NCBI GenBank assembly: GCA_977017645.1
Contig: OZ360228.1
Coordinates: forward strand, 79,112,001-79,176,000
DNA from: Torpedo marmorata
Taxonomy: Eukaryota
Reading direction: 5' to 3'
Length of the DNA: 64,000 nt
Shown here: one piece after another, positions 4,233 to 62,679 of the stretch
How positions within the stretch are numbered: position 1 is the first letter of the stretch
How the letters are laid out: the number at the start of each line of letters is the position of its first letter
Translations under genes and position numbers: made by a program
The notes under the pieces: model-generated
Told to the model about the DNA's origin: nothing
The model's database searches: none
The model's input: only the letters and a program-made list of their open reading frames with translations

Positions 4233-5464
4233 AAAGATGCATAATTCAGGATGCTCTTTATCGACTACAGTTTGGCATTTAACACCATCATCCCCTCAAA
4301 ACTGATCAGCAAACTCCAAGACCTGGGAGTTAACACCCCACTGTGTAGTTGGATCATGGATTTCCTCACCTCCAGACCACAATCAGTGAAGATTGGTAAA
4401 AATTTCTCCTCCACAATCTCCATCAGTACCGGAGCACCACAGGGCTGCGTTCTTAGCCCCCTGCTCTACTCACTTTACACCTACGACTGTGTAGCTCGGT
4501 ACGACAATAACACCATCTATAAATTTGCCGACGATACCACAGTAATGGGTTGTATAAAGGAAGGGGATGAGTCAGCATACAGGATGGAGATTGAAAACTT
4601 GGCTGAATGGTGCACCAACAACAACCTTACACTCAATGTCACCAAAACTAAGGAGCTGATTGTTGACTTCAGGAAAGGAAAGCCAGAGGTATACAATCCA
4701 GTGATCATTGGGGGATCAGAGGTGGAGAGGGTGAGCAAATTTAGGTTCTTGAGAGTCACTATCTCGGAGGATCTTTCCTGGACCCAACACGCCAATGGCA
4801 TCGTGAAGAAAGCACGTCAGCGCCTCTACTTCCTCAGGAGTTTGCGGAGGTTTGGTATGACACCAGAAACACTGGCAAATTTCTACAGAGGTGTGGTGGA
4901 AAGTGTGCTGACCGCTGCATCATGGTCTGGTATGGGAACACTAATACCCCTGAGCATAAAGCCCTCCAAAAGGTAGTGGACACAGCCCAGAACATCACAG
5001 GCAAAACCCTCCCCACTATTGAGTATATCTATAGGGAATGCTGCCATCGGAGGGCAGCAGCAATCATCAAAGACCCACACCACCCAGCACATGCTCTGCT
5101 CTCGCTGCTGCCATCAGGAAAGAGGCATAGGTGCCACAAGACTCGCACCACCAGGTTCAGGAACAGCTGCTACCCCTCCACCATCAGACTCCTCAACAAC
5201 AAACTCAATCAGAGACTCATTTAAGGACTCTTACTTGTGCACTTTATTGATTTTCTTTTGTTCTCTCTGTATTGCACAGTAAGTTTGTTTACATTTGTTA
5301 TCTGTTTACAATTCTTTTGTTTGTTTCCATGTTTACGCTGTGTACAGTTTTTTTTTTGCACCACCAATAAGTGGTAATTCTGCCGTGCCCACAGGAAAAA
5401 GAAATATCAGGGTTGTATGTGATGTCATGTATGTTCTCTGACAATAAATCTGAAATCTGAAATC
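4233..5464 (+). mobile_element. 5'-truncated Rex/Babar-type LINE (subfamily 'B')
   Basis: ORFs 4251..4976 and 4922..5224 (frameshifted) with [10 protein letters not shown] and YKFADDT. The 3' tail matches that at 1750-2010. Confidence 0.9.
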
Positions 5465-5720: not shown

Positions 5721-6162
5721 CCTCCTTTGCTGCATTTCTGCTTGGCAGATTTAGACACGAATATATCTGAGCCATGAAGAACTGTCCGACATTGAAAATA
5801 GGATCATCCCTGACAACAGCTCAATTCTAGCATAAATTTGTGGCAAGTGGGATCAAACAAAACTCAGAAAATAGATGCATGCAAACATACTGTATGTAGG
5901 GGATTCACAAACCATAATGATGCACCATTCGACACACTGTGGACCTCATACCTAAAGGCCAGTAGACATTGCTGACAGTGAATGCAATCAAAACACTTGT
6001 GTTTGTTGCAATTACAGAAAGTACACTGCTGACTACCGTATATTTCGGCGTATAAGTCGACCCTTGAAACCCTCAAAAATGTCTCAAAAAATGGGGGTCG
6101 ACTTATACGCCGGATATACTTTTGAGACCTTAAATTCAGCTCAAAATCGAGTTCACGCCGAT

Positions 6163-6315
6163 CCGGCGTATAAGTCGACCCCTGAAAACACGATTCCGCG
6201 TATAAGTCGACCCCTGAAAACACGATTCCGCGTATAAGTCGACCCCTAAAAACACGATTCGGCGTATAAGTCGACCCCTGAAAACACGATTCGGCGTATA
6301 AGTCAACCCCTGAAA
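6163..6315. repeat. subterminal ~31-bp tandem repeat (about 5 units) of the TIR core motif
   Basis: Units cacgattc(c/g)gcgtataagtcgacccctgaaaa read directly. Confidence 0.9.
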
Positions 6316-6379
6316 AACCAAAAAAAAACCCGACTGCAACAAATTTTCATTGACATTTTAATTGAAAACAACAAGACAT

Positions 6380-7729
6380 TTAGAACCCTTCAAAATCACT
6401 TTCGCTATCATCGTCTGAGGCAAAGATCTCGGCAAGCACATCCGGGGTCTCACTGTTTAAACAGTCATCGTACGGGTCCCAGTCTGTATCTGATGAGGCG
6501 TCTTCAGCTTCGTCGTCAGTGTCCCACAATAAATCATCTTCCGTACCATCAATTGCACAAGAGATACCGCACTTTTTAAACGATTTTATTATAGTCTCTA
6601 CTTTCACTTTGTCCCATGCCTTGAGCACGAAGTCACACAGCACATCAAGCGATGCAGCACGCATTGCCCCGCCTTTTGTAAATGATTTTTCTGCACTCGA
6701 CATCCATGTATTCCACTCTTCACGCACGTGGTCTTTGAATGGCTTGTTCAAGCAGACATCGAGAGGTTGCAATATAGACGTCAAACCACCCGGGATAACC
6801 GCCATGTGAGTATTATGTTGTGCTAATGTACTTTTAGTCTTCTCAGTTAAGTGGCTACGAAACATATCCCAGACCAGCAAACTCCGTTCCTTGCGTAAAC
6901 CGCCTGGCCGCCTGTTCCACACATTGTCTATCCATAGTTTTACACCATTTTCATCCATCCATCCTTTTTCATGAAAATGTACAAAAATACCTGCAGGGAA
7001 TTTTATTTTAGGTTTAAATTTGCGTTTGAAGATTACCATGGGTCTTAACTTTGTCCCGTCGGCCATGCACGATAACACCACGGTAAACCTGGTCCTTTCA
7101 TGTCCTGTACTCCTCATTTGCACAGTTTTCACACCTTTCCATTCCACTGTTCTATTGCCTATCATGTCAAAATTCATGGGGGTTTCGTCCATGTTTCCAA
7201 TATTTGCCATTGCAAACTTGTGTTTCTTCCGGTTACGTAAAATAAACTGGTGAAAACTTACAACTTTATGATCAAGATCTTTTGGTAGTTTCTGAGCAAT
7301 TTTAGTTTTTTGTCGTAATACCAGATTTTTCCTGTTCATAAAACGGTTGCACCAGCCTACTGAAGCTTCAAAATCATTACTGAGTTCTGGGTGCGACTTT
7401 GCCCAGTTCAGTGCAAATGTCCTTATTTTATTTCGGGTGACTATGTAGCAATCTTGCCTCTGTTCACGTACCCATGCTGCTACATGATTTTCCAACTCTG
7501 GCCAACGAGTGATTCCTCTTCTCATGGAACATTGCCTTTTTGGTATTTTTCTTAAAGTCTCTTCTTTCTTCCTCCAATCTCTTACCAACTTCTCATATAT
7601 ACCAAATTTTCTTGCAGCAGCACAGTTGTTGGTTTTCTTTGCCATTTCTACTACTTTCAATTTAAAACTCGCCTCATACTTTCGTCGTTTCAATTGAGCC
7701 TTCAATGGAGCCTCCATGATAACAATCAC
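6380..7729 (-). CDS. pogo-family transposase, 449 aa (Brinker-like DBD, CENP-B/Tc5 HTH, DDE_1, acidic tail)
   Basis: Motifs YEASFKLKVV..AARKFG, ASVGWCNRFMNRKNL, NMDETP, LLVWD and QPLDVCLNKPFK. There are 35 residues between the 2nd and 3rd catalytic Asp. No stops or frameshifts. Confidence 0.93.
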   Translation of the reverse strand: MIVIMEAPLKAQLKRRKYEASFKLKVVEMAKKTNNCAAARKFGIYEKLVRDWRKKEETLRKIPKRQCSMRRGITRWPELENHVAAWVREQRQDCYIVTRNKIRTFALNWAKSHPELSNDFEASVGWCNRFMNRKNLVLRQKTKIAQKLPKDLDHKVVSFHQFILRNRKKHKFAMANIGNMDETPMNFDMIGNRTVEWKGVKTVQMRSTGHERTRFTVVLSCMADGTKLRPMVIFKRKFKPKIKFPAGIFVHFHEKGWMDENGVKLWIDNVWNRRPGGLRKERSLLVWDMFRSHLTEKTKSTLAQHNTHMAVIPGGLTSILQPLDVCLNKPFKDHVREEWNTWMSSAEKSFTKGGAMRAASLDVLCDFVLKAWDKVKVETIIKSFKKCGISCAIDGTEDDLLWDTDDEAEDASSDTDWDPYDDCLNSETPDVLAEIFASDDDSESDFEGF

Positions 7730-7739
7730 CTCCAGCCAA

Positions 7740-8065
7740 CGCCCAGCAGCTCAATGATCGCGATCGTTATGGGTCGACCTATACGCCGGTCACCGCCCAG
7801 CAGCTCAATGATCGCGATCGTTATGGGTCGACCTATACGCCGGTCACCGCCCAGCAGCTTAATGATCGCGATCGTTATGGGTCGATCTATACGCCAGTCA
7901 ACGCCCAGCAGCTCAATGATCTCGAGCGGTGTGGGTCGATCTATACGTCATTCAACGGCCAGCAGCTCAATCATCGCGTTTTTTTAGGGGTCGACCTATA
8001 CGCCGGTCAACGCCTAGCAGCTCAATCATCGCGTTTTTTTAGGGTCGACTTATACGCCGGTCAAT
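7740..8065. repeat. subterminal 54-bp tandem repeat (about 6 units), each carrying the TIR core ggtcgac(c/t)tatacgcc
   Basis: Units begin at 7740, 7794, 7848, 7902, 7956 and 8011 (cgcccagcagctcaat...). Confidence 0.9.
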
Positions 8066-10756
8066 GCGCAACATCTCAGGCATCGAGATTTTTGGGGTCG
8101 ACTTATACGCCGGATATACCATAAAACCATTAAAATGAGGCTGAAAAAGGGGGGTCGACTTATCCGCCGGTCGACTTATACGCCGAAATATACGGTATGT
8201 AACTTGTAAACTAACTATGCTGCCAGTTCTTAATGTCAGTCTCTTGACGTGCTAAGCAACAATATAAACCAGGAAGAAGCACATAGGCATTCATTGTACA
8301 CAAGGGCAACATTTAACCATAAAACGTATTAATTATTGCTAGGTTCACCTGCTATCATATTTAATTCTGCTAAAATATAATTTCTCCAACAATAAATGTG
8401 ATAGAATTTGCCAAATTGACTGCAAAAAAGAAATCTGTATAAATTCTGTGATAGATCCTCTTAATGAAGAATTAAATGGCTAACTAGCCAAAGCCATATG
8501 TGATGGAAAAAAAGTGACATTTTTTCGTTATTGTACCATGCTCATACAAACAAAAAATATTTTAGAAGTGCTAAAGGTCCTGTGAACAGATAAATAAGTG
8601 CAGATAAACATTTCAAGATTGGGAAGCAAAGTCTATAAATGGAATCGAAGGTAGGAGCAACCTTTAACAAATTTCACCATAAATCACTGGCTTCTGGAGC
8701 TGCAGATCAAGTCGCAATTCATAAGACTTGTGCGATGTTAAACTAAGATACCATTCAAAGTTAACATGCTCTGAGTTAAATACAGACCATGCAATTAGAT
8801 CATTTGCCTAACTATATTTTATAATTTTTTTGCATTGAAACATAAAAGCTAATGAATATTATAATATTTTTCATTTAAAAGTAAACTATTCAAGAACTCT
8901 GCCTTCTGTTTTACAATCATGGCGACTATTGACATTGGTAAATAATGTAAGTAAATGACTGAATAAGGGTTCTCACAATTAAAATTTTGGAGATCTATAA
9001 ATGTAGGGTATAAGGCATTTCGGACTTGGAGTTTAATCACCCATATGCCTGAGCTGTGTGTTGTGTTATATGTTACACGTCACATTCTTATTCTCTGAGC
9101 TTTATTTTGAAGAATTTACCACCTTAAGTAAATTTTTATTTAAATATATCAACCCATTTGACATTTTATTCACTAGTTACAATGGAAAATATGAATTGTA
9201 AGAATGGTAAATTGTGCTTGTCATTATTGTTTCATGATCTGTAACACCAGGGTAATCCATTCCATGAGGATAGCAAGCTACAATTTAAAAAAAATCTGCA
9301 TGTGCCTTTGTTCATTGTCAACTATAAATACATGGATAGCCAAGCTCATGTAAAGGCCTTGAATTTCTGCCACATTGATCTTGGTGATGTCAAAGGAACA
9401 GATGCCATACGTATATACATTTGAAGGAAAGATCGACAATATGTCACGGTATAAAGCAAAACCATATGTAGGATGGATTATACATCAATGCAATTATGAT
9501 AGCATCAACCAGACAGCTGTTCTTCTCCAATAATGATAAATGATAAAGCGGAATGCTATTTCCCTAAAATAAGTAATCTTCACATAAACCAACATAATTT
9601 GTAAAAGTGTTTATCGTAAATTAGTTCACTTGAAATGTGCAAGTTTCTATGTCTAGCTCATTAAAGTAAATTGAAGCAAAACACTCATTTTAAATCATAG
9701 AAATCATAGATAATTATGTATCAGATTAAGGAATCATACAATGTTTTATGTGTGAACTAATTATCACTATATGACCATTTAATGAATTATATGGCACTCC
9801 CACCCCAATTAAGCTGATGTAACAGCATTTAGCTTATTTTTCCATTTGAAAAAGCCAAGAGGAGATCATTGTTTTGGACCATCTTGTGTTTGCTGGATGA
9901 AGTCCCAATTACTTCTCGCTGTTTTATATGTGTATTACTGTTGCTATGGAGCTCACTAAAACTAGTTAAGCTGCATATAGCTCTCTGCTTGGAGAGAATG
10001 TTGTACAGTTCAAGAGTATGGCTGTTTGTGACTTTCATTACTTGGTTTAGAACAGAAGGATCAAGCAGTGTCAGCAATCCACCTGATTACATTCCAAGTC
10101 TCCATTATTGGATGTCGCATTAGTCACTTCATTTTCCACATTTCCTCATGTAAGTTAAGCCAGCTGTTTTGGAAAAGCATTTTGAATTGTTTCCATTAGG
10201 GTCTGCGTGGAGTGGCTTAATAATGGGGCCACCAACCTGAAAGCAGGTGGAGGGGGTCAAGTAAATAGAGCCCACATGACTTTTTAACATAACCAAAATA
10301 AAGAAAGGTTTTCTTTTCTCTCTTGGTCTGAATCCAGTTACTCGGAATGTGGCTGTTCAACAAAAAATATCACTTGAATGCTGATTAATTATATAGTTTT
10401 CGCAACTAATAAAACCCTCTATTTTGAACTAAAACAGAATTGCTTTTAAAATCTCCTTGGAGATTTTAATCATTATCACAGAATATAATCTAGAATGCTG
10501 CATGCCTCAATGGTGTCTCTCAGAATAAAAAGATGGTATTTTAATTGAATTCTGAGGAATTCTCTATTTCTTCGGAACCCAGTTTCATTTAAGAAATTTT
10601 GAATTATGATGTGCACAAATTACCTTGTAGATATGATGAAAATAGTTGCATCATAAGTTTGTGGTACATAGGGGTTTAATAACTCTGCTGCCAAGAAGAA
10701 AACACTGGATAATATAAACTTTCTGGTACATGTGATTTTATTTTTAAGCTGATCTT

Positions 10757-16853: not shown

Positions 16854-19311
16854 ATAACCATATATAACCATATAACAATTACAGCACGGAAACAGGCCAT
16901 TAGGCCCTTCTAGTCCGCACCGAACCAAACACTCCTCTCTAGTCCCACCTACCTGCACCCTGCCCATAACCCTCCACCTCCTTCTCATCCATATACCTGT
17001 CCAACTTTTTCTTAAATAATAAAATTGACTCTGCCGCCACTACTTCTCCCGGAAGCTCATTCCACACCGCTACCACTCTCTGAGTAAAGAAGTTCCCCCT
17101 CATGTTACCTCTAAACCTCTGCCCCTTAACTCTTAACTCATGTCCTCTTGTTTCAATCTCTCCTACTCTTAACGGAAATAGTCTATCCACATCCACTCTG
17201 TTTATCCCTTTCATAATCTTAAATACCTCTATCAAATCCCCTCTCAACCTTCTACGCTCCAAAGAATAAAGACCTAATCTGCTCAATCTCTCCTTGTACT
17301 CTAGATGCTTAAACCCAGGTAACATTCTGGTAAATCTTCTCTGCACTCTCTCCACTCTGTTGATATCCTTCCTATAATTTGGCGACCAGAACTGCACACA
17401 GAACTCTAAATTAGGCCGCACCAATGCCTTATATAATCTCAACATCACTTCCCAACTCCTATATTCTATGCAATGATTGATAAAGGCCAGCATACTAAAA
17501 GCCTTCTTCACCACCCTATTCACATGAGTTTCTACCTTCAGGGAACGATGCACCGTTACTCCTAAATCTTTCTGCTCTTCTGTATTCATCAATGCTCTCC
17601 CATTTACTACATATGTCCTGTTCTGATTCTTCTTACCAAAATAAAGCACCTCACACTTATCAGCATTAAACTCCATTTGCCATTTTTCAGCCCACTTTTC
17701 TAAGCAGCCCAAATCTCTCTGCAATCCTTGAAAACCTTCTTCATTATCCACTATTCCACCTCTCTTAGTATCGTCTGCATATTTACTAATCCAGTTCACC
17801 ACCCCATCATCTAGATCATTAATGTATATAACGAACAACAATGGGCCCAATACAGATCCCTGAGGCACACCGCTGGTCACCGGCCTCCAACCTGACAGAC
17901 AATTATCCACTACCACTCTCTGGCCTCTCCCTTTCAGCCAATGTTCAATCCATTTGACTATCTCAAAATTTATACCTAAAGACTGCACCTTCCTAACTAA
18001 CCTTCCATGTGGTACCTTATCGAAGGCCTTACTGAAGTCCATATAGACAACATCCACCGCGCTACCCTCATCCACATTCCTAGTCACCTCTTCAAAAATT
18101 CAATCAGATTGGTCAAACAGGACCTTCTGCTCACAAATCCGTGTTGAGTGTTCCTGATCAGACCCTGTCTATCCAGATATTTATAAGTACTATCTCTAAG
18201 AAATTTCTCCATTAATTTACCTACCACAGACGTCAAACTTACAGGCCGATAATTGCCAGGCTTCCTCCTTGAACCCTTTTTAAATAACGGAACCACATGC
18301 GCAATACGCCAATCCTCCGGCACTATCCCCATCTCTAATGACATTTGGAAAATCACCGTCAGAGCCTCTGCTATTTCCTCCCTTATTTCTCTCAAGGTCC
18401 TGGGGAAGATCCCGTCGGGTCCCGGAGGCTTATCCACCTTTATATGCCTCAAAAGCCCTAACACTACATCTTTCGTAATCACTATATTCTCCATATTTAC
18501 CCAATTTTCTTTTTTTATCTCGCATATCCCAATATCCTTCTCCTTGGTGAATACCGAAGAAAAGAAACTGTTCAATATCTCCCCCATTTCTCTAGGCTCC
18601 ACACACAGTTTTCCGCTCTGATTCTCTAAGGGACCAATTTTGTCCCTCGCTTTCCTTTTACCATTAACGTATTTGTAGAAACCTTTTGGATTAATTTTCA
18701 CCCTGCTTGCTATAGTCTCCTCGTACCTTCTTTTAGCTTTCCTAATTCCTCTCTTAAGATTCCTTTTACATTCAATGTATTTTTCAAACATCTCCTTAAT
18801 TCCATGCTTCTTATACTTAATGTACGCCTCCCTTTTTTTTCGAACCAAGTTTCCAATATTCCTCGAAAACCACGGCTCTCTCAAACCTTTTGCCCCTCCT
18901 TTTAACCTAACAGGAACATAAAGCTTTTGCACTCTCAAAATCTGATCTTTAAAAGACTTCCACCTCTCTACTACATCCTGCCCATAAAACAAATTGTCCC
19001 AATGCACACCCTGTAAGTCCTTTCGCATCTCCTCAAATCTAGCTTTTCCCCAATCAAAAACCTCAACCCTTGGCCCTGACTTATCTCTTTCCATAATGAC
19101 ATTGAAGCTGATGGCATTATGATCACTGGACCCGAAGTGCTCGCCAACACAAACCTCCGTCACTTGACCTATCTCATTTGCCAACAGTAGATCTAACACT
19201 GCTCCTTCTCTGGTCGGTACCTCTACATATTGTTGTAAAAAACTATCCTGCACACATTTCACAAACTCCAACCCATCCAGCCCTTTCACAGAATGTGTTT
19301 CCCAATCTATA
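16854..19311 (-). mobile_element. 5'-truncated CR1 (HER1-like) LINE, ORF2 endonuclease end plus RT, one frameshift
   Basis: ORFs 18084..19289 (LDLLL..SDHN..PGPDGI..GNYRPVSLTS) and 16939..18087 (DFSKAFDKV, SGVPQGSVLGP, YADD). Flanking tgtgggtact (16844) and tgtggatact (19312) form a probable TSD or microhomology. Confidence 0.93.
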
Positions 19312-20564
19312 TGTGGATACTCTGGGATTAGTGACTATGAAGACTGTAGGAAAGGTCTGAGACTATTAATGTTGTAGGATCCATCTGCAACTATGCAGTG
19401 TCAGTTCATTCTGTGACAATGAACTGTATAAAATCAATCTGCCTCCCAGACCATGTTATGATAAATCTGTCACTATATGAGTGTAGGATTATTCAGTGCA
19501 GTGCAAAATGAGCTGATGAATCTGTCCAATAGAAATCACAGGACAATCAGTGATTATGAATACTTTAGGATCAATATATCACTATATATGTACAAAAGGA
19601 TATATCTGTGACTACGAATACTTGAGGACCTGAAACATTGAGCAGTGTAGAATGATTCTAATTTTTTCTGTGTGGGAACAATCTGCAATTCTGAATGCTC
19701 CAGGATCCACCTGACTATGAATAATGAAGAGTCAATTTGCAATGAAGTACGTTGTAGAATCAATGGGTAAGTATATGCTGTTCATGATCAATCTGTCACC
19801 ATAAATACTGTAAGATCAATCTGCTACTATGTCTACATATAGTGTAGGATTAACATATGATGACAAATAGCATTGGATCAGTGCTCTGTGATATCAGTCT
19901 GTGACTGTGTATGGTATAGTATGAGTCTTGGGCTATGAATATTTTGAGTTCATTATGATAAAAACCAGTTTTATTGGTCTGTGACCATGTACAATATAGA
20001 GTCGATCTGTGACTGTACAGCCTAGGATCGATTTGTGAGTTTGTTCAGTCCAGGGTCAAATTATGATGATAAATTCTGTAGAATCAGATCTGTTACTATG
20101 AACAGTGTAACTTCAACCTATCAAAATAAGGAGTGCAGGATCAATTGTTGAATTTATAAAGTGCAGGATGATTCTGTGACTGCATATTTTAAGATCTACC
20201 TGCAACTATAAATACTGTCAGACTAATCTGTGATCATGTCCAGTGTAGAATTAATTTGCAACCACATTAATGTGTTAGTATGTACAGTTTGGAATTAAAC
20301 TGTGACCATGCACAGTGTCATTATTTTTGTCAATGTACATTGCGAGATCAAGCTATGTCTATAAACAGCATTGGATCAATCCACAACCGTGTACATTATA
20401 GTTTCAATCTGTGGCTATGAGTAGCATAGCATCAATTTGTTACCATAAATAGTGTTGCATAAACCCAGACAATGCACACACCAGAAAACGAATATGATTC
20501 TATGTAGAGTGTGAATAGGTATAAAGAGGGATCAATCTGTGGCTGTGCTCATTCCAAATCAACC

Positions 20565-21984
20565 TCAGAATCAGAATTTATTGTCATGAACAAGTCATGA
20601 AATTCGGTGTTTTGCGGCAGCATCATAGTGCAAACATTCATATTATAACCATTCTAACGACATTACTATAAAATATATAAATAATAGTGCAGGAAAAGTA
20701 AGGCAGTGTCTTTGGTTCATTGATTATTCAGGAATCTGATGGCAGCGGGGAAGAAGCTGTCCTTGTGCCGTTGAGTGCTCGTCTTTAGGCTCCTGTACCT
20801 TTTTCCCGATGGAAGCAGAGTGAAGAGGGCATGGCCTGGGTGGTGGGGGGTCTCTGAGGATAGAGGCTGCTTTTTTAAGACACCGTCTCTTGTAGATGTC
20901 CTCGATGGAGTGAAGTCTGGTGCCTGTGATGTTACAGGCTGAGTTAACAACCCTCTGGAGTTTATTCTTGTCCTGAGAGTTGGCGCCTCCATACCAGGCA
21001 GTGATGCAACCAGCCAGAATGCTCTCCACGGTACACCTGTAGAAGTTTACGAGTGTTTTCGGTGACATACCGAATCTCCTCAAACACCTCACAAAGTATA
21101 GCTGCTGGTGAGCCTTCTTTGTGATTGCATCAATGTGGAGGCTCCAGGTCAGATCCTCGGAGATGTTGACACCCAGGAATTTTATGTTCTTGACCCTCTC
21201 CACTACTGAGCCCTCGATGAGGACTGAGTCGTGTTCCCCTGACTTCCTCCTGAAGTCCACAATCATCTCCTTGGTTTTGCTGACGTTGAGCGCAAGGTTG
21301 TTGTCGTTACACCATTCAACGAGCTGATCTATCTCCCTCCTGTACGCTTCCTCATTGCCGTTTGTGATTCTGCCGACAACTGTGGTGTCATCAGCAAACT
21401 TGTAGATGGCATTGGAATTGTGCCTGGCCACACAGTCATGGGTGTATAACGAGTAGAGCAGAGGGCTAAGCATGCATTCTTGGGGTGCACCTGTGTTGAT
21501 AATCGGTGAGGAGAAGACATTGTTTCCAATTCGTACTGACTGTGGTCTTCGGATGAGAAAGTCAAGGATCCAGTTGCAGATGTGGGTACAGAGGCCTAGA
21601 GTTTGTAGCTTCTTGACCAGCACTGAGGGAATAATGGTATTGAAGGCTGAGCTGTAGTCGATGAAGAGCAGCCGTATGTATGAATTGCTGTTTTCAAGGT
21701 GATCCAGAGCTGAGTGGAGAGCCAGCGATATTGCATCTGCTGTGGAGCGATTGTGACGATAGGCGAATTGCAGTGGGTCCAGATCTTTGCTTAGGTACAT
21801 GTTAATTCTGGCCATGACGAGCCTCTCAACGCATTTCATCACAGTAGAAGTTAGTGCTACTGGGCGGTAGTCGTTGAGGCAGCTCACACTACTCTTCTTG
21901 GGTACTGCGATGATTGATGCCCTTTTGAAGCAGGTGGGAATCTCTGACTGCCGCAATGAGAGGTTGAAAATATCCGTGAACACT
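20565..21984 (-). mobile_element. 5'-truncated Rex/Babar-type LINE (subfamily 'A')
   Basis: ORF 20724..22097 has RT motifs; the sequence is near-identical to 331-1699. Confidence 0.92.
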
Positions 21985-22023
21985 AATACAATGTAACCTG
22001 TAACAATGAATGCCATCAAAGGA

Positions 22024-22589
22024 ACATGGAAACAGAAAATAGATGCAGAAGTAGACCATTTGGCCCTTTCAGCTGCTCCATCATTTAATACAGTCATGGT
22101 TGATCTTCTAGCTTAATGCCATATTCCCACTCTCTCCACATACCTCCTGATGCTTTTGTATCTAGAGATCTATCTACTTCATTCTTAAATACAGTTAATG
22201 ATTTGGATGACTGCTTTCTGTTCTCATCTCAATCTTAAATTCATAGATTCATAGAAAACAGATGCAGGAGTCGGCCATCCAGCCTTTCGAGCCGGCTCCA
22301 CCATTCACTATGATAATGGATGATCATGCTTCCTCAGTGCCTAATTCCTGCTTTCTCTCCAAACCCCTTGGTTCCTTTGGCCAAAAGAGCCATATATACT
22401 TCCCTTTTGAATATATCTAATGAACTGGCCTCAACACCTTTCTGTGGTTTGGGAGGTCCCTAAGTTCATAACTCTCTGAATGAAGAAGATTCTCCTCATC
22501 TCAGTCCTAACTGGCTGACCCCTTATCCTTGGACTGTGACCCCTCATCCTGGACTTCCCCAACATCAGGAACATCCTTCCTGCATCTCA
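22024..22589 (-). mobile_element. two degenerate CR1 3' fragments
   Basis: gatgcaggagtcggccatccagcc-type tails and the gaagaagattctcctcatctcagtcct motif of CR1 3' ends. Confidence 0.65.
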
Positions 22590-24707: not shown

Positions 24708-27700
24708 TCAGCACGAATTGTCCATACTGTCCAGGGTGCCTACCTAAGATAGCCCTATTTGCCTTCATTACTCCAATTTCCTATTCATGTACCTGTTCAA
24801 ATGTTTTTTTTAAACATTGTGATTGTACCTGCCTCTACCACTTCCCCTGGCAGCTCATTCCAAATACTTCGGTGTGGAAAAATGTGCTCCTCAGGTTTCT
24901 TTTAAATCTTTCCCCTCTGATCCAAAAACTTACAGAAAGAGACAAAGAAAGTCATTAGGAAATAAAAGATGAATTATGAAAGGAGGTTGGCAAATAATAT
25001 ACAAAAGAATACTAAGAGTTTTTTCAAATATATAAAGAGTAAAAGAGAGACAAGGGTAGATATAGGACCGATTAAAAATGATGCTGGAGGAATTATAATG
25101 GGTAACCAAGAGATGGCAGAGGAACTAAATGAGTATTTTACGTCAGTCTTCACTGAGGAAGGCAATAGCAATATACCTGATATTCAGAGGATGCAGGGAA
25201 TAGAATTAAGTACAGTTAGGATTACTAGGGAGATAGTGCTTGGAAAGCTGATTGGACTAAAGATAGATAAGTCTCCGGGACCGGATGATGTGCACCCATG
25301 GGTTCTAAGGAGGTGGCTTTGGAGATTGTGGAGGCATTGGAAATGATTTTTCAGAAATCAATATACTCTGGCATGATTCCGGAGGATTGGAAGGTCGCAA
25401 ATGTAGTTCTACTGTTTAAGAAAGGAGGGAGGCAGAAAAAAGGAAATTATAGGCCTATTAGTCTGACATCAGTAGTTGGTAAGATTTTGGAGTCGATCCT
25501 CAAGGACGAGGTTATGAAATACCTCGAGATGAATGACATGATAGGTCCAAGCCAGCATGGTTTCATGAAGGGAAGATCCTGCCTGTCCAACCTATTGGAA
25601 TTTTTTGAGGAGATATCAGGTAGGATGGACAAGGGAGAGGCTGTGGATGTTGTGTATTTGGATTTTCAAAAGGCCTTTGATAAGGTGCCACATAAGAGGC
25701 TGCTTAATAAGATGAGAGCTCATGGAATTACAGGAAATATATTAGATTGGGTGGAGCATTGGCTGATAGGCAGAAAGCAAAGGGTGGGAATAAAGGGATT
25801 CTGTTCTGGTTTGTTGCTGGTAACTAGTGGTGTTCCGCAAGGCTCGGTGTTGGGACCGCTTCTTTTTACAATGTATATAGATGATTTAGATTACAGATTG
25901 AATGGTTTTGTGGCTAAGTTTGCGGATGACACCAAGATAGGTGGTGGAGTAAAAAGTGTTGAAGAAATCAAAAGGTTACAGAGAGACCTGGACAGCTTAG
26001 GAGAGAGGGCAAAGAAATGGCAGATGAGATATAATGTTGAAAAATGCACGGTTGTACATTTTGGAAGAGGAAATAAACAAGCAGATTATTATTTGGATGG
26101 GGAGAAAATTCAAAATTTGGAAGTGCAAAGGGACTTGGGGGTCCTCGTGCAGGATAACCTAAAGGTTAACCACCAGGTTGGATCGGCAGTAAAGAAAGCG
26201 AATGCTATGTTGGCATTCATTTCAAGAGGAATAATATATAAGAGTGAAGAGGTGTTGATGAGGCTCTATGGGGCACTGGTGAGACCTTATTTGGAGTACT
26301 GTGTGCAGTTTTGGGCCCCTTATCTTAGAAGGGATGTAATAATGTTGGAGAGAGTACAGAGAAGATTTACCAGGATGATTCCTGGAATGCAGGGGCTAAC
26401 ATATGAGGAGCGTTTAGCGGCTCTTGGACTGTATTCTTTGGAGTACAGAAGATTGAGAGGGGATCTCAAAGAAACATTTCGAATACTGAAAGGATTGGAC
26501 AGAGTAGATGGAAATAAGATGTTTCCCTTGGTGGGTGAATCCAGGACAAGAGGGCACAGTCTTAGAATTAGAGGGTACCCATTTAGAACAGAGATGAGGA
26601 GGAATTTCTTTAGCCAGAGGGTCGTGGATTTGTGGAATTCGTTGCCACATACAGCTGTGGAGGCCCGATCTTTGGGGGATTTTAAGGAGGAGATTGATAG
26701 GTATCTGATTGGTCAGGGTATAAAGAGATATGGGGAAAAGGCCAGAAATTGGAATTAGATCTGAGAACAGTTTAATTTAGGGTGGAGTTGCGGAACAGAC
26801 TCAATGGGCCGAATTGCCTACTTCTGTTCCTTTATCTTGTGATCTTAAATCTATGCCCTCTGGTTTTAAACTCTCCTATCGTGGGGAAAAGATTTTGAGT
26901 ATTTACCTTATCTATGTCCCTCATGATCTCACAGACCTCTATAAGGTCATCCTTCTGCCTCTTCACTCCAGGGAAACATTCCAGCCCACCCAGTTTCATC
27001 TTCTAACTCAGCAACATCCCTTGTGACTCTTTTCTGTACCCACACAATACTTCAAGTGCAGTCTCACCAATGTCATGTCCAGCTGTAATATTCTTATGTT
27101 CTTATTAACATCCCAACTCTTATACTCAATGCCCTGTCTATCTGTGTTGCCACTTTCAGGGAACTGTGTACTTGTATGTCGAGATCCCCCTGTTCAACAA
27201 TATTCCTGAGGGCCCTGTTATTCATTGTGTATGTCCTGCCCTGGTTTGCCTTTCCAAATGCATAATTTCACACGTATCTGAGTTAAATTCCATCTGCCAT
27301 TCATTTGCCAACTTTCCCAGTTGATCTATATCCTGTTGTAACCTTAGACAACCTTCTTCTTTTCCCACTACACACCAATTTTGGTGTCATCCTCAAACGT
27401 AACAATGATGCCACAATTTTCATCCAAATTGTTAATATTGATGACGAACAGCAGGAAATGCAGTACTGATCCCTAAAGTACACCACTGCTCTCAGGTCTC
27501 CAATCTGATAAATCACTCTCCACTACCACACTCTACCTCCTTCCACCAAGCCAAATTTTTATTCAATTGGCAAGCTCACTCTGGATCCTATGCAATGTAA
27601 CCTTCCAGAGCAGCCTACCATGTGAGAGCTTGTCAAAGGCCTTGCTCAAATCCAAGTAGACAGCATCTACTGCCCTGCCATGATCAATCCTCTTGGTCAC

Positions 27701-45450: not shown

Positions 45451-45647
45451 GACTTAAAACACTGTTTATCGAATAGAATGGAACCAGTTCTACACCGGTA
45501 CGCGTGCATCCACAATCAATAAAATGATACTTTTTATTAGACTATATAAATAAAATACTACAGCCATTTGAAATCTCTTTTTATCTCACAATAACTCTTC
45601 GGTAAAGAGTTATTTGTTACGGTTGAACTCATTTTCTTGTTTTGAAG

Positions 45648-46271
45648 GTGTGGTTCAAAAACCGTCGAGCAAAGTGCCGCCAACAACAGCAGCAGCAGCA
45701 GAATGGAGGGCAGCATAAAGTTCGGCCGACGAAAAAGAAGAGCTCTCCTGCCCGGGAGCTGGGCTCGGAGAGCGTGGCAGGCGGCCAATTCACGCCGCCC
45801 TCCAGCACCTCGGTGACGGCCATATCGAGCAGTACCGCCCCAGTGTCAATTTGGAGCCCCGCGTCCATATCTCCGATCGCCCCCGATGGCCTCTCCACGT
45901 CCTCGTCCTGTATGCAGCGTTCCTACCCCATGACCTACACCCAGGCCTCGGGTTATACTCAGGGATATGCCGGATCCACGTCCTACTTTGGGGGAATGGA
46001 CTGCGGCTCGTACCTGTCCCCGATGCACCACCAGCTCCCTGCCCCAGGGACAGCGCTCAGTCCCATGGGCACAAACGCAGTCACTGCAGGCCATCTCAAC
46101 CAGTCTCCGGCCTCCCTCTCTGCCCAAGGCTACACAGCCGGTGGATTAGGTTTTAATTCCACCGATTGCTTGGATTATAAAGACCAGACAGCTTCATGGA
46201 AACTCAACTTCAACGCTGACTGCTTGGATTACAAAGATCAAACATCATCGTGGAAGTTTCAAGTTTTGTGA
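45648..46271 (+). CDS. otx2: Otx2 coding exon 3 (K50 helix, poly-Q, SIWSPAS motif, tandem OTX tail)
   Basis: [63 protein letters not shown]-stop. The spliced product is 290 aa. No His-rich insert, which argues against Otx1. Confidence 0.98.
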
Positions 46272-50800: not shown

Positions 50801-52774
50801 AGATGAACAGGGTTCCTCAGTCTTTGAAGGAACAGAAACTAAAGTGACAGTCAAGGTAAAATTTAAGGTATTCCTAAATAATCATTTTTATTTCGGTAGA
50901 TTTTTGGAGTGAAAGGCCAATGAACAAAGTTCGAACTAAGTCCTTGTCCCCATATCACAGAGCCCCCAAATCATCTCCAAAACACATATCATGGAAGCTT
51001 GAATCGAAGTGCTACTTTCACCCTTCCGCAATAATCCAGCGATTCTCGTATTTCCATCTCATTGGAGGAATTACTATGGTATTGTTGAGTTCAAAGTGCA
51101 CAATCAGCCGGTACACGTGCAGGCATGTCCCATGGCTGCCTTGTCGTTGTAATTCATAGGCGACTTTGAAATGACAGGGAAATCTAAGTCTGATAGAACC
51201 TCCGTGCGCATCGTACTAATGTAATTACTGATGTCATTTCTGTTTCGCGGGCAGACTGCTCGATCAGTTATGCGGTTCTCATTGCTGGTCTTCAATCGCA
51301 GGTCAACCAACGCAGCATAGTTAGAAAAAAGATCAGATTGTAGCTCAGAGTCAGAAATGATATCCAAAAGGTGAGTTCACCCCTCCCAACTCTTGAAATT
51401 GTCATTCAATGCCAAAAGCAGGCATTAAAGCAGTAAGGCAGACAGGCATGGACAGTGCGAGCGCATCAGGACCTGACACGTTTGTGAAGACAGAGATCGG
51501 TCCAGCAAAAAAAAAAACCCACTTGTACAGCGATGCTCTCGTGAAAACGCAGACAATGAAAATTAACGAGAAAGCAATTTGCATTCTTAAAAAACAAGAA
51601 TAGCAAATCGCAGTTAAAAGTTCGTCTTACAAATCAGTTGAGTCTATAATATGCAAGGATTGCTCAGAATGCGTCATCTCATTCACGTTTGAATAAACCG
51701 CTTTGCGAATTAAAAATTTCTTAAGTAAATATATCTGTTAACACAGAAGGCGGCAGAATAACTCCTTTAATCTTAAATTTCCCGAATATTCGATGTTATC
51801 TCCATAATCACTAACGCTTCGGGAGAAATACTCGGTGCTTATGTTCAAACTGGCACCTCTTGGCATGTAGAGATGTCTTACTGCACCGCAGAATAGAGCT
51901 CAACGTGAAATGTATTCGTGCACATTACAACCGTTATGTAAAAATGTCATCATGCTTCAAATATTGTCTAAATGTTATGCACAATTAGGTTACGTTTGAA
52001 TCTTGCAATGATATTTGATTAAATTATGAATGTGTATTTAAAGTAAATATGTTGTTTTTGTTTGTGACACAGCCAAATTCAACATATTTAACATTTCGAC
52101 TCAAAATTCACGGTCTTTGGATATTTTCGGAAAACGAATATTTTTACATTGTTTTTGTATTAACCTAATGAAGAATCGCGTTCTCCTCCTCGTCTGTCCA
52201 GCGAGGACGGGGGCTGCAATGGTCGATGGGTCGTAACTGAATGAGATTCGTATCACAAGGCATCAAGGCTCCCCACCTTCTAAATCCCGTCCCAGTGTTA
52301 CCATCCCGCCACAACCCGCAATCCCCACCTGAGTTCGAAAATTATAACCCAACTTTCTGGTGATCGGCGTCCATGATCGAAATGAATCTCCGTCACCACA
52401 GCTCAAGGAAACGGACACATCTGGCGAACGATGTGAATATTGTGAACATGTTGACCTCAATTTACCGAAATTTCCCACGTGTACCTGATACCCATAATTT
52501 TATCCAACAATATTTCAAATATATTTACTACACACACATACATATATTTCTAGATTTACAAAGAATCGCGGGTTAATTTTCAACCACGCCGGCAATCAAC
52601 GGCTACTGTCCAGGAACACATTTATAAAATGTTCACGAGCAATTTACTGTATTTCTTCACGATTTCAAGGGTTTAAAAGTTGTGTATAAGAATGAGAATA
52701 CTAGACAATGGAATGTTAGTAATCTCCAATTATAAAATCACTCTGGACTAGTCTGACATTCTTATTTTGTAAGA

Positions 52775-53910
52775 AAGCAAAGATCTGGACCCACTGCAAT
52801 TCGCCTATCGTCACAATCGCTCCACAGCAGATGCAATATCGCTGGCTCTCCACTCAGCTCTGGATCACCTCGAAAACAGCAATTCATACATAAGGCTGTT
52901 CTTCATCGACTACAGCTCGGCCTGCAATACCATTATCCCCTCAGTGCTGGTCAAGAAGCTACAAACTCTAGGCCTCTGTACCCCACTCTGCAACTGGATC
53001 CTTGACTTTCTCATCCGAAGACCACAGTCATTACGAATTGGAAACAACTTCTCCTCCTCACTGATTATCAACACAGGCGCACCCCAAGGATGTGTGCTTA
53101 GCCCACTGCTCTACTTGTTATACACCCATGACTGTGTGGCCAGGCACAATTCCAATGCTATCTACAAGTTTGCCGATGACACCACAGTTGTCGGCAGAAT
53201 CACAAACGGCAATGAGGAAGCATATAGGAGAGAGATAAATCAGCTCGTTGAATGGTGTAAGGATAACAACCTTGCGCTCAACATCAGCAAAACCAAGGAA
53301 ATGATTGTGGACTTCAGGAGGAAGTCAGGGGAACACGACCCAGTCCACATCGAGGGCTCAGTCGTGGAGAGGGTCAAGAACTCCAAATTCCTGGGTGTCA
53401 GCATCTCCGAGGATCTGTCCTGGAGCCTCCACTTAAACTTCTACAGGTGTAGAGTATTCTGGCTGGTTGCATCACTGCCTGGTATGGAGGCTCAAACTCT
53501 CAGGACAAGAATAAACTCCAGAGGGTTGTTGACTAGGCCTGTGACATCACAGGCACCAGACATCACTCCATCGAGGACATCTACATGAGGCGGTGTCTTA
53601 AAAAAGCAGCCTCTATCCTCAAAGACCCCCACCACCCAGGCCATGCCCTCTTCACTCTGCTACCATCGGGAAAAAGATACAGGAGCCTAAAGACAGCACT
53701 CAACGGCACAAGGACAGCTTCTTCCCTGCTGCCATCAGATTCCTGAATAATCAATGAACCAAAGACACTGCCTTACTTTTTGTGCACTATTATTTATATA
53801 TATATTATAGTAATGTCGTAAGACGGTTATCATATGAATGTTTGCACTATGATGCTGCCGCAAAACACCAAATTTCATGACTTCTTCATGTCAATAAATT
53901 CTGATTCTGA
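52775..53910 (+). mobile_element. 5'-truncated Rex/Babar-type LINE (subfamily 'A') with an internal deletion
   Basis: ORF 52944..53588 has RT motifs; tail tcaataaattctgattctga. It lacks the segment after EDLSWSLH (about 53432). Confidence 0.92.
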
Positions 53911-61450: not shown

Positions 61451-62387
61451 ATAAAAAACACAAATGCTGGAGAAACTCAGCAGGTCAAACAGTGTCTTTT
61501 ATGTAGCAAAGGTAGAAATACATAACCGACGTTTCGGGCTTGAGCCCTTCATCAAAGTATGAGAAAATGCTGGCAGGTGTCTGAACAAAAGAGTGAGGGG
61601 GGGGGAAGGGGGGGGTGGCAAAGGCAGGAGATGATAGGTGGAGAAAGGAGGGAGGGGACAGCAGCAAAGAGGGGGAGAAGGGATGGCTGGGTGGGTGGAA
61701 AAAACAGAAAGGACAGGTGAGGGGGGAGGGGAAGGAAAAGACAAGCAGGTTTAGTGGAAAGCAGAAAAGTCAATGTTAATGCCATCTGGCTGGAGAGTGC
61801 CGAGACGGAATATGAGATGTTGTTCCTCCAATTTGCGGGTAGTCTGGGTGGGATAGTACATGAGGCCATGGATAGACATGTGAGTGTGGGAGTGTGACTC
61901 AGAATTGAAATGGTTGGCTACTGGGAGGTCGCTGTTGTTGCGGACGGAGAGGAGGTGCTCAGCAAAGCGAGATCCCAATCTACGACCGGTCTCTCCGATG
62001 TAGAGAAAGCCACAAAGGGAGCACCGGATGGAGTAAATAAGTTCTCTGGATGTACAAGTGAAGTATAGTTTTACTTGAAAGGCCTGTTTGGGGCCCCGGA
62101 CCGTGGTGAGGGGGGAGGTGTGGGCGCAGGTGTTGCACCTCCTGCGGGCACAGGGGAAGGTGCCGGGGGTGCGATGGGTGGGGAGGGATGAGTGCACGAG
62201 GGAATCGCCGAGGGAGCAGTCCCTACGGAAGGCCGAGAGGGGAGGAGAAGGAAAAATGTGTCTGGTGGTGGGATCCTGTAGTAAGTGCCGGAAATTCCGG
62301 CTGATAATGTGTTGGATGCGGAGGCTAGTGGGGTGGTAGGTGAGGATGAGGGGGATTCTATGTTTGTTGCGTCTGGGGGCAGATGGG
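61451..62387 (-). mobile_element. 5'-truncated Penelope-like element (GIY-YIG endonuclease plus terminal repeat)
   Basis: ORF 61751..62392 has C..RRCNTC, LIYSIRC..CGFLYIGETGRRL..RFAEH, VANHF and EQHLIFRLGTLQPDGIN. The 13-bp direct repeat gccacaagtgcct is at 61438-61450 and 62388-62400. Confidence 0.92.
61521..61561 (-). ncRNA. minimal type-I hammerhead ribozyme-like motif in the PLE terminal repeat
   Basis: uUGAUGA-aGGGCU(ca)AGCCC-GAAA-c-GUC; minimal hammerheads are known in Penelope-like elements. C3 is replaced by U. Confidence 0.6.
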
Positions 62388-62679
62388 GCCACAAGTGCCT
62401 GTGTTGGATCCCTGTAACGATAGCCAGGAGGAGTCGGGACTGAAAGTTAGCCAATTTGTGATTTTAAATAAAAGCTCCTGAAGCCCCCACCCCATGAGGT
62501 ATTTGTTTCTGTTAATGGGAGGGTTGGGGCGATGCTGTCATTGTCAAGTGAAACAAAATATATACATTTCTTTCTAGTGTTTGATCTGTGACACTCTAGT
62601 TATAAACTGTAACTTTGAAACAGTGAACTGTAACTCTAATTCCCTGAGTGTGCTTAAAGACATTATTACTAGAGCTCAG

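Follow-up and report, generated by a model that had tools for sequence, protein, structure and literature searches.

The question raised by the stretch of Torpedo marmorata DNA analysed here (64,000 nucleotides of contig OZ360228.1, assembly GCA_977017645.1, positions 79,112,001 to 79,176,000 of the forward strand, hereafter the window) is whether the DNA transposon lying at its positions 6036-8195 is the relic of a past burst or a member of a family that is still able to move. The evidence set out below points with good confidence to the latter: this element is a recent, intact, full-length Passer copy, belonging to a family with an estimated several hundred intact copies, which is likely mobile and whose transposase likely moves thousands of short elements carrying the start of the host gene DMRT1.

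The transposon measures 2,160 bp and ends in terminal inverted repeats (TIRs) that are complementary at 27 of 27 positions. Its parts, which include the open reading frame (ORF) of the transposase, are the following (positions in the window; aa, amino acids):

6036..8195: the transposon, 2,160 bp, with perfect 27-bp TIRs and TA on both sides
6034..6035, no strand: TA target-site duplication, left copy; the empty orthologous site, with one TA, is found in organism C
6036..6062, no strand: TIR of 27 bp at the 3' end of the transposase gene
6096..6112, no strand: internal copy of the 17-bp TIR core, in opposite orientation to the others at the same end; putative transposase binding site
6159..6318, no strand: five 32-bp subterminal repeats with the 17-bp TIR core in each; putative transposase binding sites
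6380..7717, minus strand: transposase ORF, 445 aa plus stop, with the private change L170M at 7210
6578..7093, minus strand: DDE_1 match, aa 209-380, with D284 at 6866-6868 and D320 at 6758-6760
7187-7189, minus strand: catalytic D177, just ahead of the DDE_1 match
7313..7504, minus strand: HTH_Tnp_Tc5 DNA-binding domain (Pfam), aa 72-135
7550..7687, minus strand: BrkDBD DNA-binding domain (Pfam), aa 11-56
7732..8112, no strand: about seven 54-bp subterminal repeats with the TIR core, in the 5' region
8042..8195, no strand: 154-bp 5' end, 95-99% identical to that of most DMRT1-carrying non-autonomous elements
8169..8195, no strand: TIR of 27 bp at the 5' end of the transposase gene
8196..8197, no strand: TA target-site duplication, right copy

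The transposase starts at an ATG at 7717 on the minus strand, giving 445 aa (456 aa from stop to stop), and BrkDBD, HTH_Tnp_Tc5 and DDE_1 are each found in it above the Pfam cut-off. Its catalytic triad (D177/D284/D320), aligned with that of homologues, has 35 residues separating D284 and D320, which corresponds to DD35D. The 17-bp core of the TIRs appears in 16 copies at four mismatches or fewer, nine at the 5' end and seven at the 3' end, and the subterminal arrays so formed are likely transposase binding sites. These arrays were overlooked in an earlier reading made from the letters of the window (the sequence-only reading), which had reported perfect 27-bp TIRs with a TA duplication and a transposon of the DD35D pogo/Passer type. 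Both claims hold, the duplication being proven by the empty site of organism C, and the type being in agreement with the triad, the three domains and the short TIRs. The uninterrupted ORF is also confirmed, but not the length of 449 aa ascribed to it, which is reached only from a GTG located four codons upstream of the ATG. Likewise, the CpG-depleted surroundings described for the element exist locally but not across the whole window. The element has an observed/expected CpG ratio of 1.20 (its ORF, 0.80) and the remaining window one of 0.53, with values of 0.23-0.29 in the bins directly left of the element and of up to 0.88-0.99 in those at 36-56 kb, and the ratio of the element is raised by its CpG-rich subterminal repeats.

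By every feature tested (DD35D, domains, TIR length, TA, ORF length and size) the element is a Passer, an assignment based on described features, the protein matches sharing the domains and carrying no Passer label. Passer elements have been reported to measure 1.6-4 kb, with one ORF of 400-500 aa, TIRs shorter than 30 bp and a TA duplication (PMC9976928), and to combine BrkDBD and HTH_Tnp_Tc5 with a DD35D core (PMC7386202, Gao et al. 2020), in all of which the element resembles them. The likeness extends to the insertion site, an A being present three bases ahead of the TA at 140 of 170 ends of the family, in agreement with the AAGTACTT target consensus reported for Passer (PMC9976928). A term search of the main text of that survey found no direct repeats or subterminal arrays mentioned for Passer.

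The insertion itself is very young, as had been proposed in the sequence-only reading. The window copy shows only two private changes with respect to the majority sequence of the young copies, L170M and one non-coding base, and in organism C, whose flanks are 5.4-5.9% diverged, a contig joins position 6033 straight to 8196, leaving an empty site with a single TA. In organism A, the flank of which differs at 16 of 909 bases (1.8%), the site is likely empty too. The right-flank contig, with a depth of 6.78, has 66 unplaced letters ahead of the flank, and the depth of the last left-flank bin (5.17) is the value obtained from 44 bases at 6.78 together with an overlap of 2 bases, an argument from depth arithmetic. 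A 4,748-base contig of organism G, which spans the left flank up to 6029 with sequence continuing past it, would be consistent with an empty site as well.

In the genome assembly searched (6.22 Gb), 2,577 candidate copies were found, and all 40 of those scored were full-length at about 100%. The best 30 copies, a set biased toward the best matches, lie 0-5 bases from their own majority, with a mean pairwise divergence of 0.23%; they keep an open frame in 29 of the 30 cases, have TA on both sides in all of them and are surrounded by flanks distinct for each. Genome-wide, exact TA plus TIR ends amount to 17,063 (0 in the reversed control) and an exact 35-mer of the coding region to 1,801. In a sample taken by position (the first 45 loci of the coding 35-mer on contig C1), 20 copies are less than 1% from the young majority, with 18 intact, and the other 25 are at 1.7-3.7%, with 4 intact. 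The intact copies (22/45) would represent 630-1,135 genome-wide (Wilson interval), and those having in addition two perfect TIRs and both TAs (15/45) would represent 385-863; the intact fraction is an overestimate for the whole family, because sampling by the 35-mer favours the young type. Element length among the sampled copies ranges from 1,740 to 2,355 bp. For comparison, no family in Table 1 of the published Passer survey has more than 294 copies in total or more than 83 intact ones (PMC9976928, Wang et al. 2023), against 1,801 coding matches and an estimated 630-1,135 intact copies here; in the supplement of that survey Chondrichthyes are represented by one row, Leucoraja, of 1,281 bp, with no copy counts shown.

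The tree of 56 copies has the shape of a ladder. An old group, which has a 12-bp in-frame deletion, lies at one end and the young group, where several distinct sub-branches are recognised, at the other, with intermediates between them. The older waves, linked by these intermediates, reach about 4% from the young copies. One copy, L108, combines the young ORF sequence with a 12-bp deletion similar to the one in the old group, which may reflect recombination or a recurrent deletion. The family is also present in many copies in relatives whose unique flanks are 1.8% (organism A) and 5.5% diverged; in organisms A, C and D, which bear older alleles at many sites, it occupies from hundreds to tens of thousands of contigs (this comparison covered 6 of the 23 listed sequencing runs). 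No RNA data set is on record among the holders of the element, and X8, presumed to be RNA, consists of contigs that are uninformative about expression. It may be proposed that the family predates the split from several of these relatives and has persisted since then, being amplified in successive waves.

A second component of the family, overlooked in the sequence-only reading, is a set of non-autonomous elements carrying DMRT1 sequence. The first 100 TIR matches on contig C1 gave 30 two-ended pairs, 19 of which are non-autonomous, with the ends of the family (about 100-160 bp and 180-210 bp, 94-99% identical) around a foreign interior. This interior contains a GC-rich minisatellite with 6-56 copies of a 27-bp unit, and in all 19 of these younger elements it aligns to the 5' untranslated region (5'UTR) of DMRT1 (66-129 bases at 87-92%). 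Among 10 single-ended loci fetched, two older relatives contain the start of the DM domain; moreover, the 10 loci opened with a DM marker are all flanked by TA and bounded by TIR-like ends with 0-6 mismatches, and they match DMRT1 5'UTR plus exon 1 at 91-96% identity. Exact matches reach 8,722 for the stretch ending at the ATG, 7,578 for a 28-mer of the 5'UTR and 1,501 for the DM piece, these being counts of markers, with sequences opened for the named loci only.

The interior of these elements comes from DMRT1. The source gene (L133, at 246.43 Mb of contig C2) is the first of three DM genes in a row, is 79-94% identical to elasmobranch DMRT1, and has a complete exon 1 with its splice donor; the only Dmrt1-domain match of the genome lies 1.8 kb downstream of this exon, and the TIR core is absent from the 7 kb fetched at this locus. 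The elements thereby show the traits that define Pack-TIRs, namely host gene sequence between TIRs, a TA duplication and a parental gene outside the transposon. The capture begins about 183 bases ahead of the ATG, some 100 bp downstream of core promoter-like boxes that are not carried, and extends via exon 1 into the first part of the DM domain; the captured stretch lacks 44 bases in one deletion, shows one more gap of a single base, and is followed by the minisatellite, which is 70-80% like the array of DMRT1 intron 1. The start of this intron consists of a GC-rich minisatellite about 670 bp long, with units of about 30 bp (L133:4333-5008). An interpretation of the captured minisatellite as a 9-residue coding repeat was dropped because of this similar array.

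Outside the minisatellite, 18 of the 19 non-autonomous elements differ by 0.17-4.7% (0.17-0.7% in the youngest pairs), a range suggesting that they moved alongside both autonomous waves. The older DM-carrying copies are 7-9% from the DMRT1 gene, and the capture junction is also present in organism C, so the capture is old. The DMRT1 piece would have been captured once, early, and most of the captured coding sequence would have been lost later, while the minisatellite expanded. Two of the loci, L131 and L132 (20.49 and 20.56 Mb of contig C1), lie 67 kb apart, are both 1,273 bp long and align with the same scores; they are probably a local duplication and not two insertions.

A literature search, outside whose scope were subscription journals, Repbase and Dfam, returned no prior report of this family or of a DMRT1-carrying Pack-TIR. 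In a survey of 100 animal genomes, four multicopy Pack-TIR cases (1.4%) were described, with an example present on three chromosomes (PMC8277862, Tan et al. 2021); the terms 'pogo' and 'Tc1' do not occur in its main text. Those cases share with the present one a host gene between the ends of a TIR transposon, a GC-rich 5' gene region and spreading by later transposition, and differ from it in that here 8,722 exact matches of the captured marker are found and the copies are still young. The nearest parallel in scale is the bat Helitron HelibatN3, in which the promoter, 5'UTR, exon 1 and part of intron 1 of NUBPL are present in about a thousand copies (PMC4224331, Thomas et al. 2014). In both cases the 5' end of a gene has been amplified in a vertebrate. 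However, HelibatN3 is a rolling-circle element, with about eightfold fewer copies, which carries the promoter, whereas a cut-and-paste TIR element that leaves the promoter-like boxes out is involved here. Another non-autonomous DNA transposon tied to dmrt1 is Izanagi, whose insertion in the medaka dmrt1bY promoter brings a Dmrt1 binding site to the gene (PMC2820524, Herpin et al. 2010); in contrast to that delivery, the transposon described here takes a piece of the gene away with it, a relationship established at the level of sequence.

The transposase ORF shows a signal of purifying selection in variants shared among copies. This was analysed through variant frequencies in a set of 84 copies, with the gap-rich L061, L067 and L071 and codons 1-12 removed, and in a second set of 55 copies without the best-match set. 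In the first, the non-CpG singletons comprise 188 changes of amino acid and 53 silent ones (omega, the ratio of amino-acid-changing to silent rates, 0.9-1.25), against 17 and 18, respectively, for the non-CpG variants present in at least three copies (omega 0.23-0.33; Fisher p=0.0006), a result carried by 35 shared variants only. In the set of 55 copies, p ranges from 0.0007 to 0.016 across sharing thresholds of 2-8, the single indel that is widely shared preserves the frame, and the stops present in at least three copies are all at CpG codons. A table restricted to CpG changes has the same direction without reaching significance (24:12 versus 13:14, p=0.20).

DNA transposons have been reported to evolve neutrally within genomes, according to measurements made between copies (PMC7070016). 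Such a measure is dominated by private changes, so it is not necessarily in conflict with the pattern found here. The same test, with the same direction of result, has been applied to Sirevirus elements, which are long terminal repeat retrotransposons and not DNA transposons; in them the proportion of amino-acid-changing variants declines with frequency, a pattern that needs preferential self-mobilisation (PMC9073684, Dazeniere et al. 2022), for which DNA transposons have been argued to have no means (PMC7070016). Possible sources of the signal in the present family are a preference of the transposase for its own copy, the expression of few sources at once, or repeated re-entry from relatives. 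Strict self-preference is disfavoured by the thousands of non-autonomous copies, since they imply that mobilisation in trans works.

With regard to the mechanism of movement, analogy with the experimentally tested stickleback Passer and with other Tc1/mariner-type elements suggests that BrkDBD and the HTH domain would bind the 17-bp core in the TIRs and subterminal arrays, that the DD35D core would excise the element and insert it at TA in an A-N-N-TA context, and that repair would duplicate the TA. The candidate active transposase proposed in the sequence-only reading is retained as such, its predicted activity being compatible with the intact ORF, the domains, and the near-identical intact copies with perfect ends.

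Several observations weigh against an intact and mobile family with a DMRT1-carrying partner. At 9 of the 171 columns that are conserved across 80 homologues the window protein has another residue; these include C387, where 99% have N, C90, where 96% have G, and M170, where 86% have L. Eight of the nine departures are common to the young majority, M170 alone being private. An alternate haplotype with an empty site was sought in the assembly, where the flank is present once only. The sample of 45 copies from which the intact fraction was calculated comes from one contig and was picked by an exact 35-mer of the young type. As for the capture, the minisatellite match with intron 1 is only 70-80%, with a unit of 27 versus about 30 bp, and about 100 bp located 3' of the minisatellite do not align to the DMRT1 stretch tested. 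The DMRT1 pieces, any role of which would be hypothetical, have a disrupted frame and lack the probable promoter boxes.

The private L170M would also be compatible with the window copy being an intact relic of a very recent amplification, in a family now silenced or inactive; in addition, CpG transitions make up 18 of the 54 variant types in the best 30 copies, which suggests that the copies are methylated and decaying. However, L002 and L003 are identical to each other and to the majority across all 2,160 bases, the 45 position-sampled ORFs include three that are equal to the young majority and one that departs from it by a 12-bp in-frame deletion only, and the young copies form several sub-branches, so that a burst already extinguished appears somewhat unlikely. 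That the intact ORF belongs to a domesticated gene of the POGK type could be considered taking into account that Passer gave rise to POGK and POGZ (PMC7386202), and an assembly artefact might be imagined as well. Nevertheless, the locus has perfect TIRs and a TA duplication, it is empty in relatives, thousands of dispersed copies have different flanks and the family is present in independent sequencing runs; the empty orthologous site refutes domestication, the locus being neither single nor devoid of mobile ends, and these explanations are together extremely improbable.

The sequence-only reading had attributed the youth of the element to a recent invasion, possibly by horizontal transfer, and this part of it is not supported. 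Under such a view, the young subfamily would have arrived from outside, or the successive subfamilies would be re-entries from relatives or from a vector. Invasion or re-entry would also account for the purifying-selection signal, i.e., the deficit of amino-acid changes among shared non-CpG variants (17:18 versus 188:53), purifying selection on DNA transposons having been reported during transfer and not within genomes (PMC7070016), and parts of the element are contained in eleven organisms. Against this, the best of 1,132 protein matches in a collection of 5.8 billion proteins is only 75% identical (the named ones, from newt, coelacanth and turtle, 64-67%), the copy tree is laddered from old to young type, and the older alleles already mentioned are found in organisms A, C and D. 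The candidate transfer partner X2 (organism B) contains the element, with 8 differences over 1,194 bases and a depth of about 11, together with non-autonomous junctions and, at a depth of 8-12, the host long interspersed nuclear element (LINE), and it lacks the unique flank. Trace ray DNA is the likelier explanation, and X2 was rejected as a partner. X14, with short low-depth LINE pieces and the unique flank absent, resembles X2 and was also discarded. Thus, from the 6 of 23 listed runs that were compared, a recent horizontal entry is considered unlikely, although the family as a whole may have an older horizontal origin.

More speculative, and in our view quite unlikely as a complete account, is an extension of the reading of a mobile, long-resident family in which it would persist by vertical descent under purifying selection, new copies being moved preferentially by the transposase that they themselves encode, and in which, with more than 8,000 DMRT1 5' ends dispersed in the genome, small RNAs produced against the transposon could act on this sex-development gene too.

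Elsewhere in the window, the last exon of OTX2 is located at 45627-46271 on the plus strand, with identities of 96% to skate, 94% to shark and 93% to chimaera, and DMRT1 exon 1 is also closest to batoids; by themselves, these similarities identify the host as a cartilaginous fish and probably as a batoid. About 37 kb separate this exon from the transposon, which lies upstream of it, possibly within the OTX2 regulatory region. Partial LINE-like frames, of at most 489 aa, are found at 487-1746, 4245-5224, 16939-19334, 20724-22112, 25289-26758 and 52773-53588, where they are reverse-transcriptase frames of two LINE types, and at 61751-62446, where the frame resembles a GIY-YIG endonuclease end.

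Other dispersed DM-domain matches do not come from the Passer family and were rejected as members of it. Most loci opened among 87 DM matches are explained by a second multicopy element, with 15-bp inverted ends that are presumably hAT-like, carrying the DM-domain exon of a DMRTA-like gene (L114) at 90-93% identity across about 1 kb; some of its copies retain an uninterrupted DM domain. Its positions are:

L143:1625-3483 and L138:1005-2526: second DM-carrying element
L115, L116, L119-L122 and L134-L152: second DM-carrying element, in part of these loci

Two divergent single DM-domain loci adjoining other DMRT genes, L145 (158.18 Mb of contig C22) and L147 (256.45 Mb of contig C2), match no dispersed family and are possibly extra paralogues or pseudogenes. 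The first belongs to one of two parallel three-gene DM clusters, located at 158.07-158.18 Mb of contig C22 (L111, L118, L145) and at 246.43-246.79 Mb of contig C2 (L133, L113, L117); the DM domains of the C22 cluster are DMRT2-like and DMRT3-like, its first member being divergent.

Taken singly, the element is an ordinary Passer, but the family is not ordinary. By estimation, its intact copies are about ten times as numerous as those of any Passer tabulated in the published survey, and its non-autonomous partner outnumbers the multicopy animal Pack-TIRs reported in the survey of that class by orders of magnitude. The family is one contributor to a genome of 6.2 Gb and a natural candidate for a vertebrate-derived gene-transfer tool. 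Moreover, the depletion of shared amino-acid changes in its transposase allows one to test directly whether DNA transposons are, as has been held, neutral within their hosts and survive only by horizontal transfer, and the presence of the start of DMRT1 in mobile elements makes a conflict between transposon and host mediated by small RNAs testable in the gonads.

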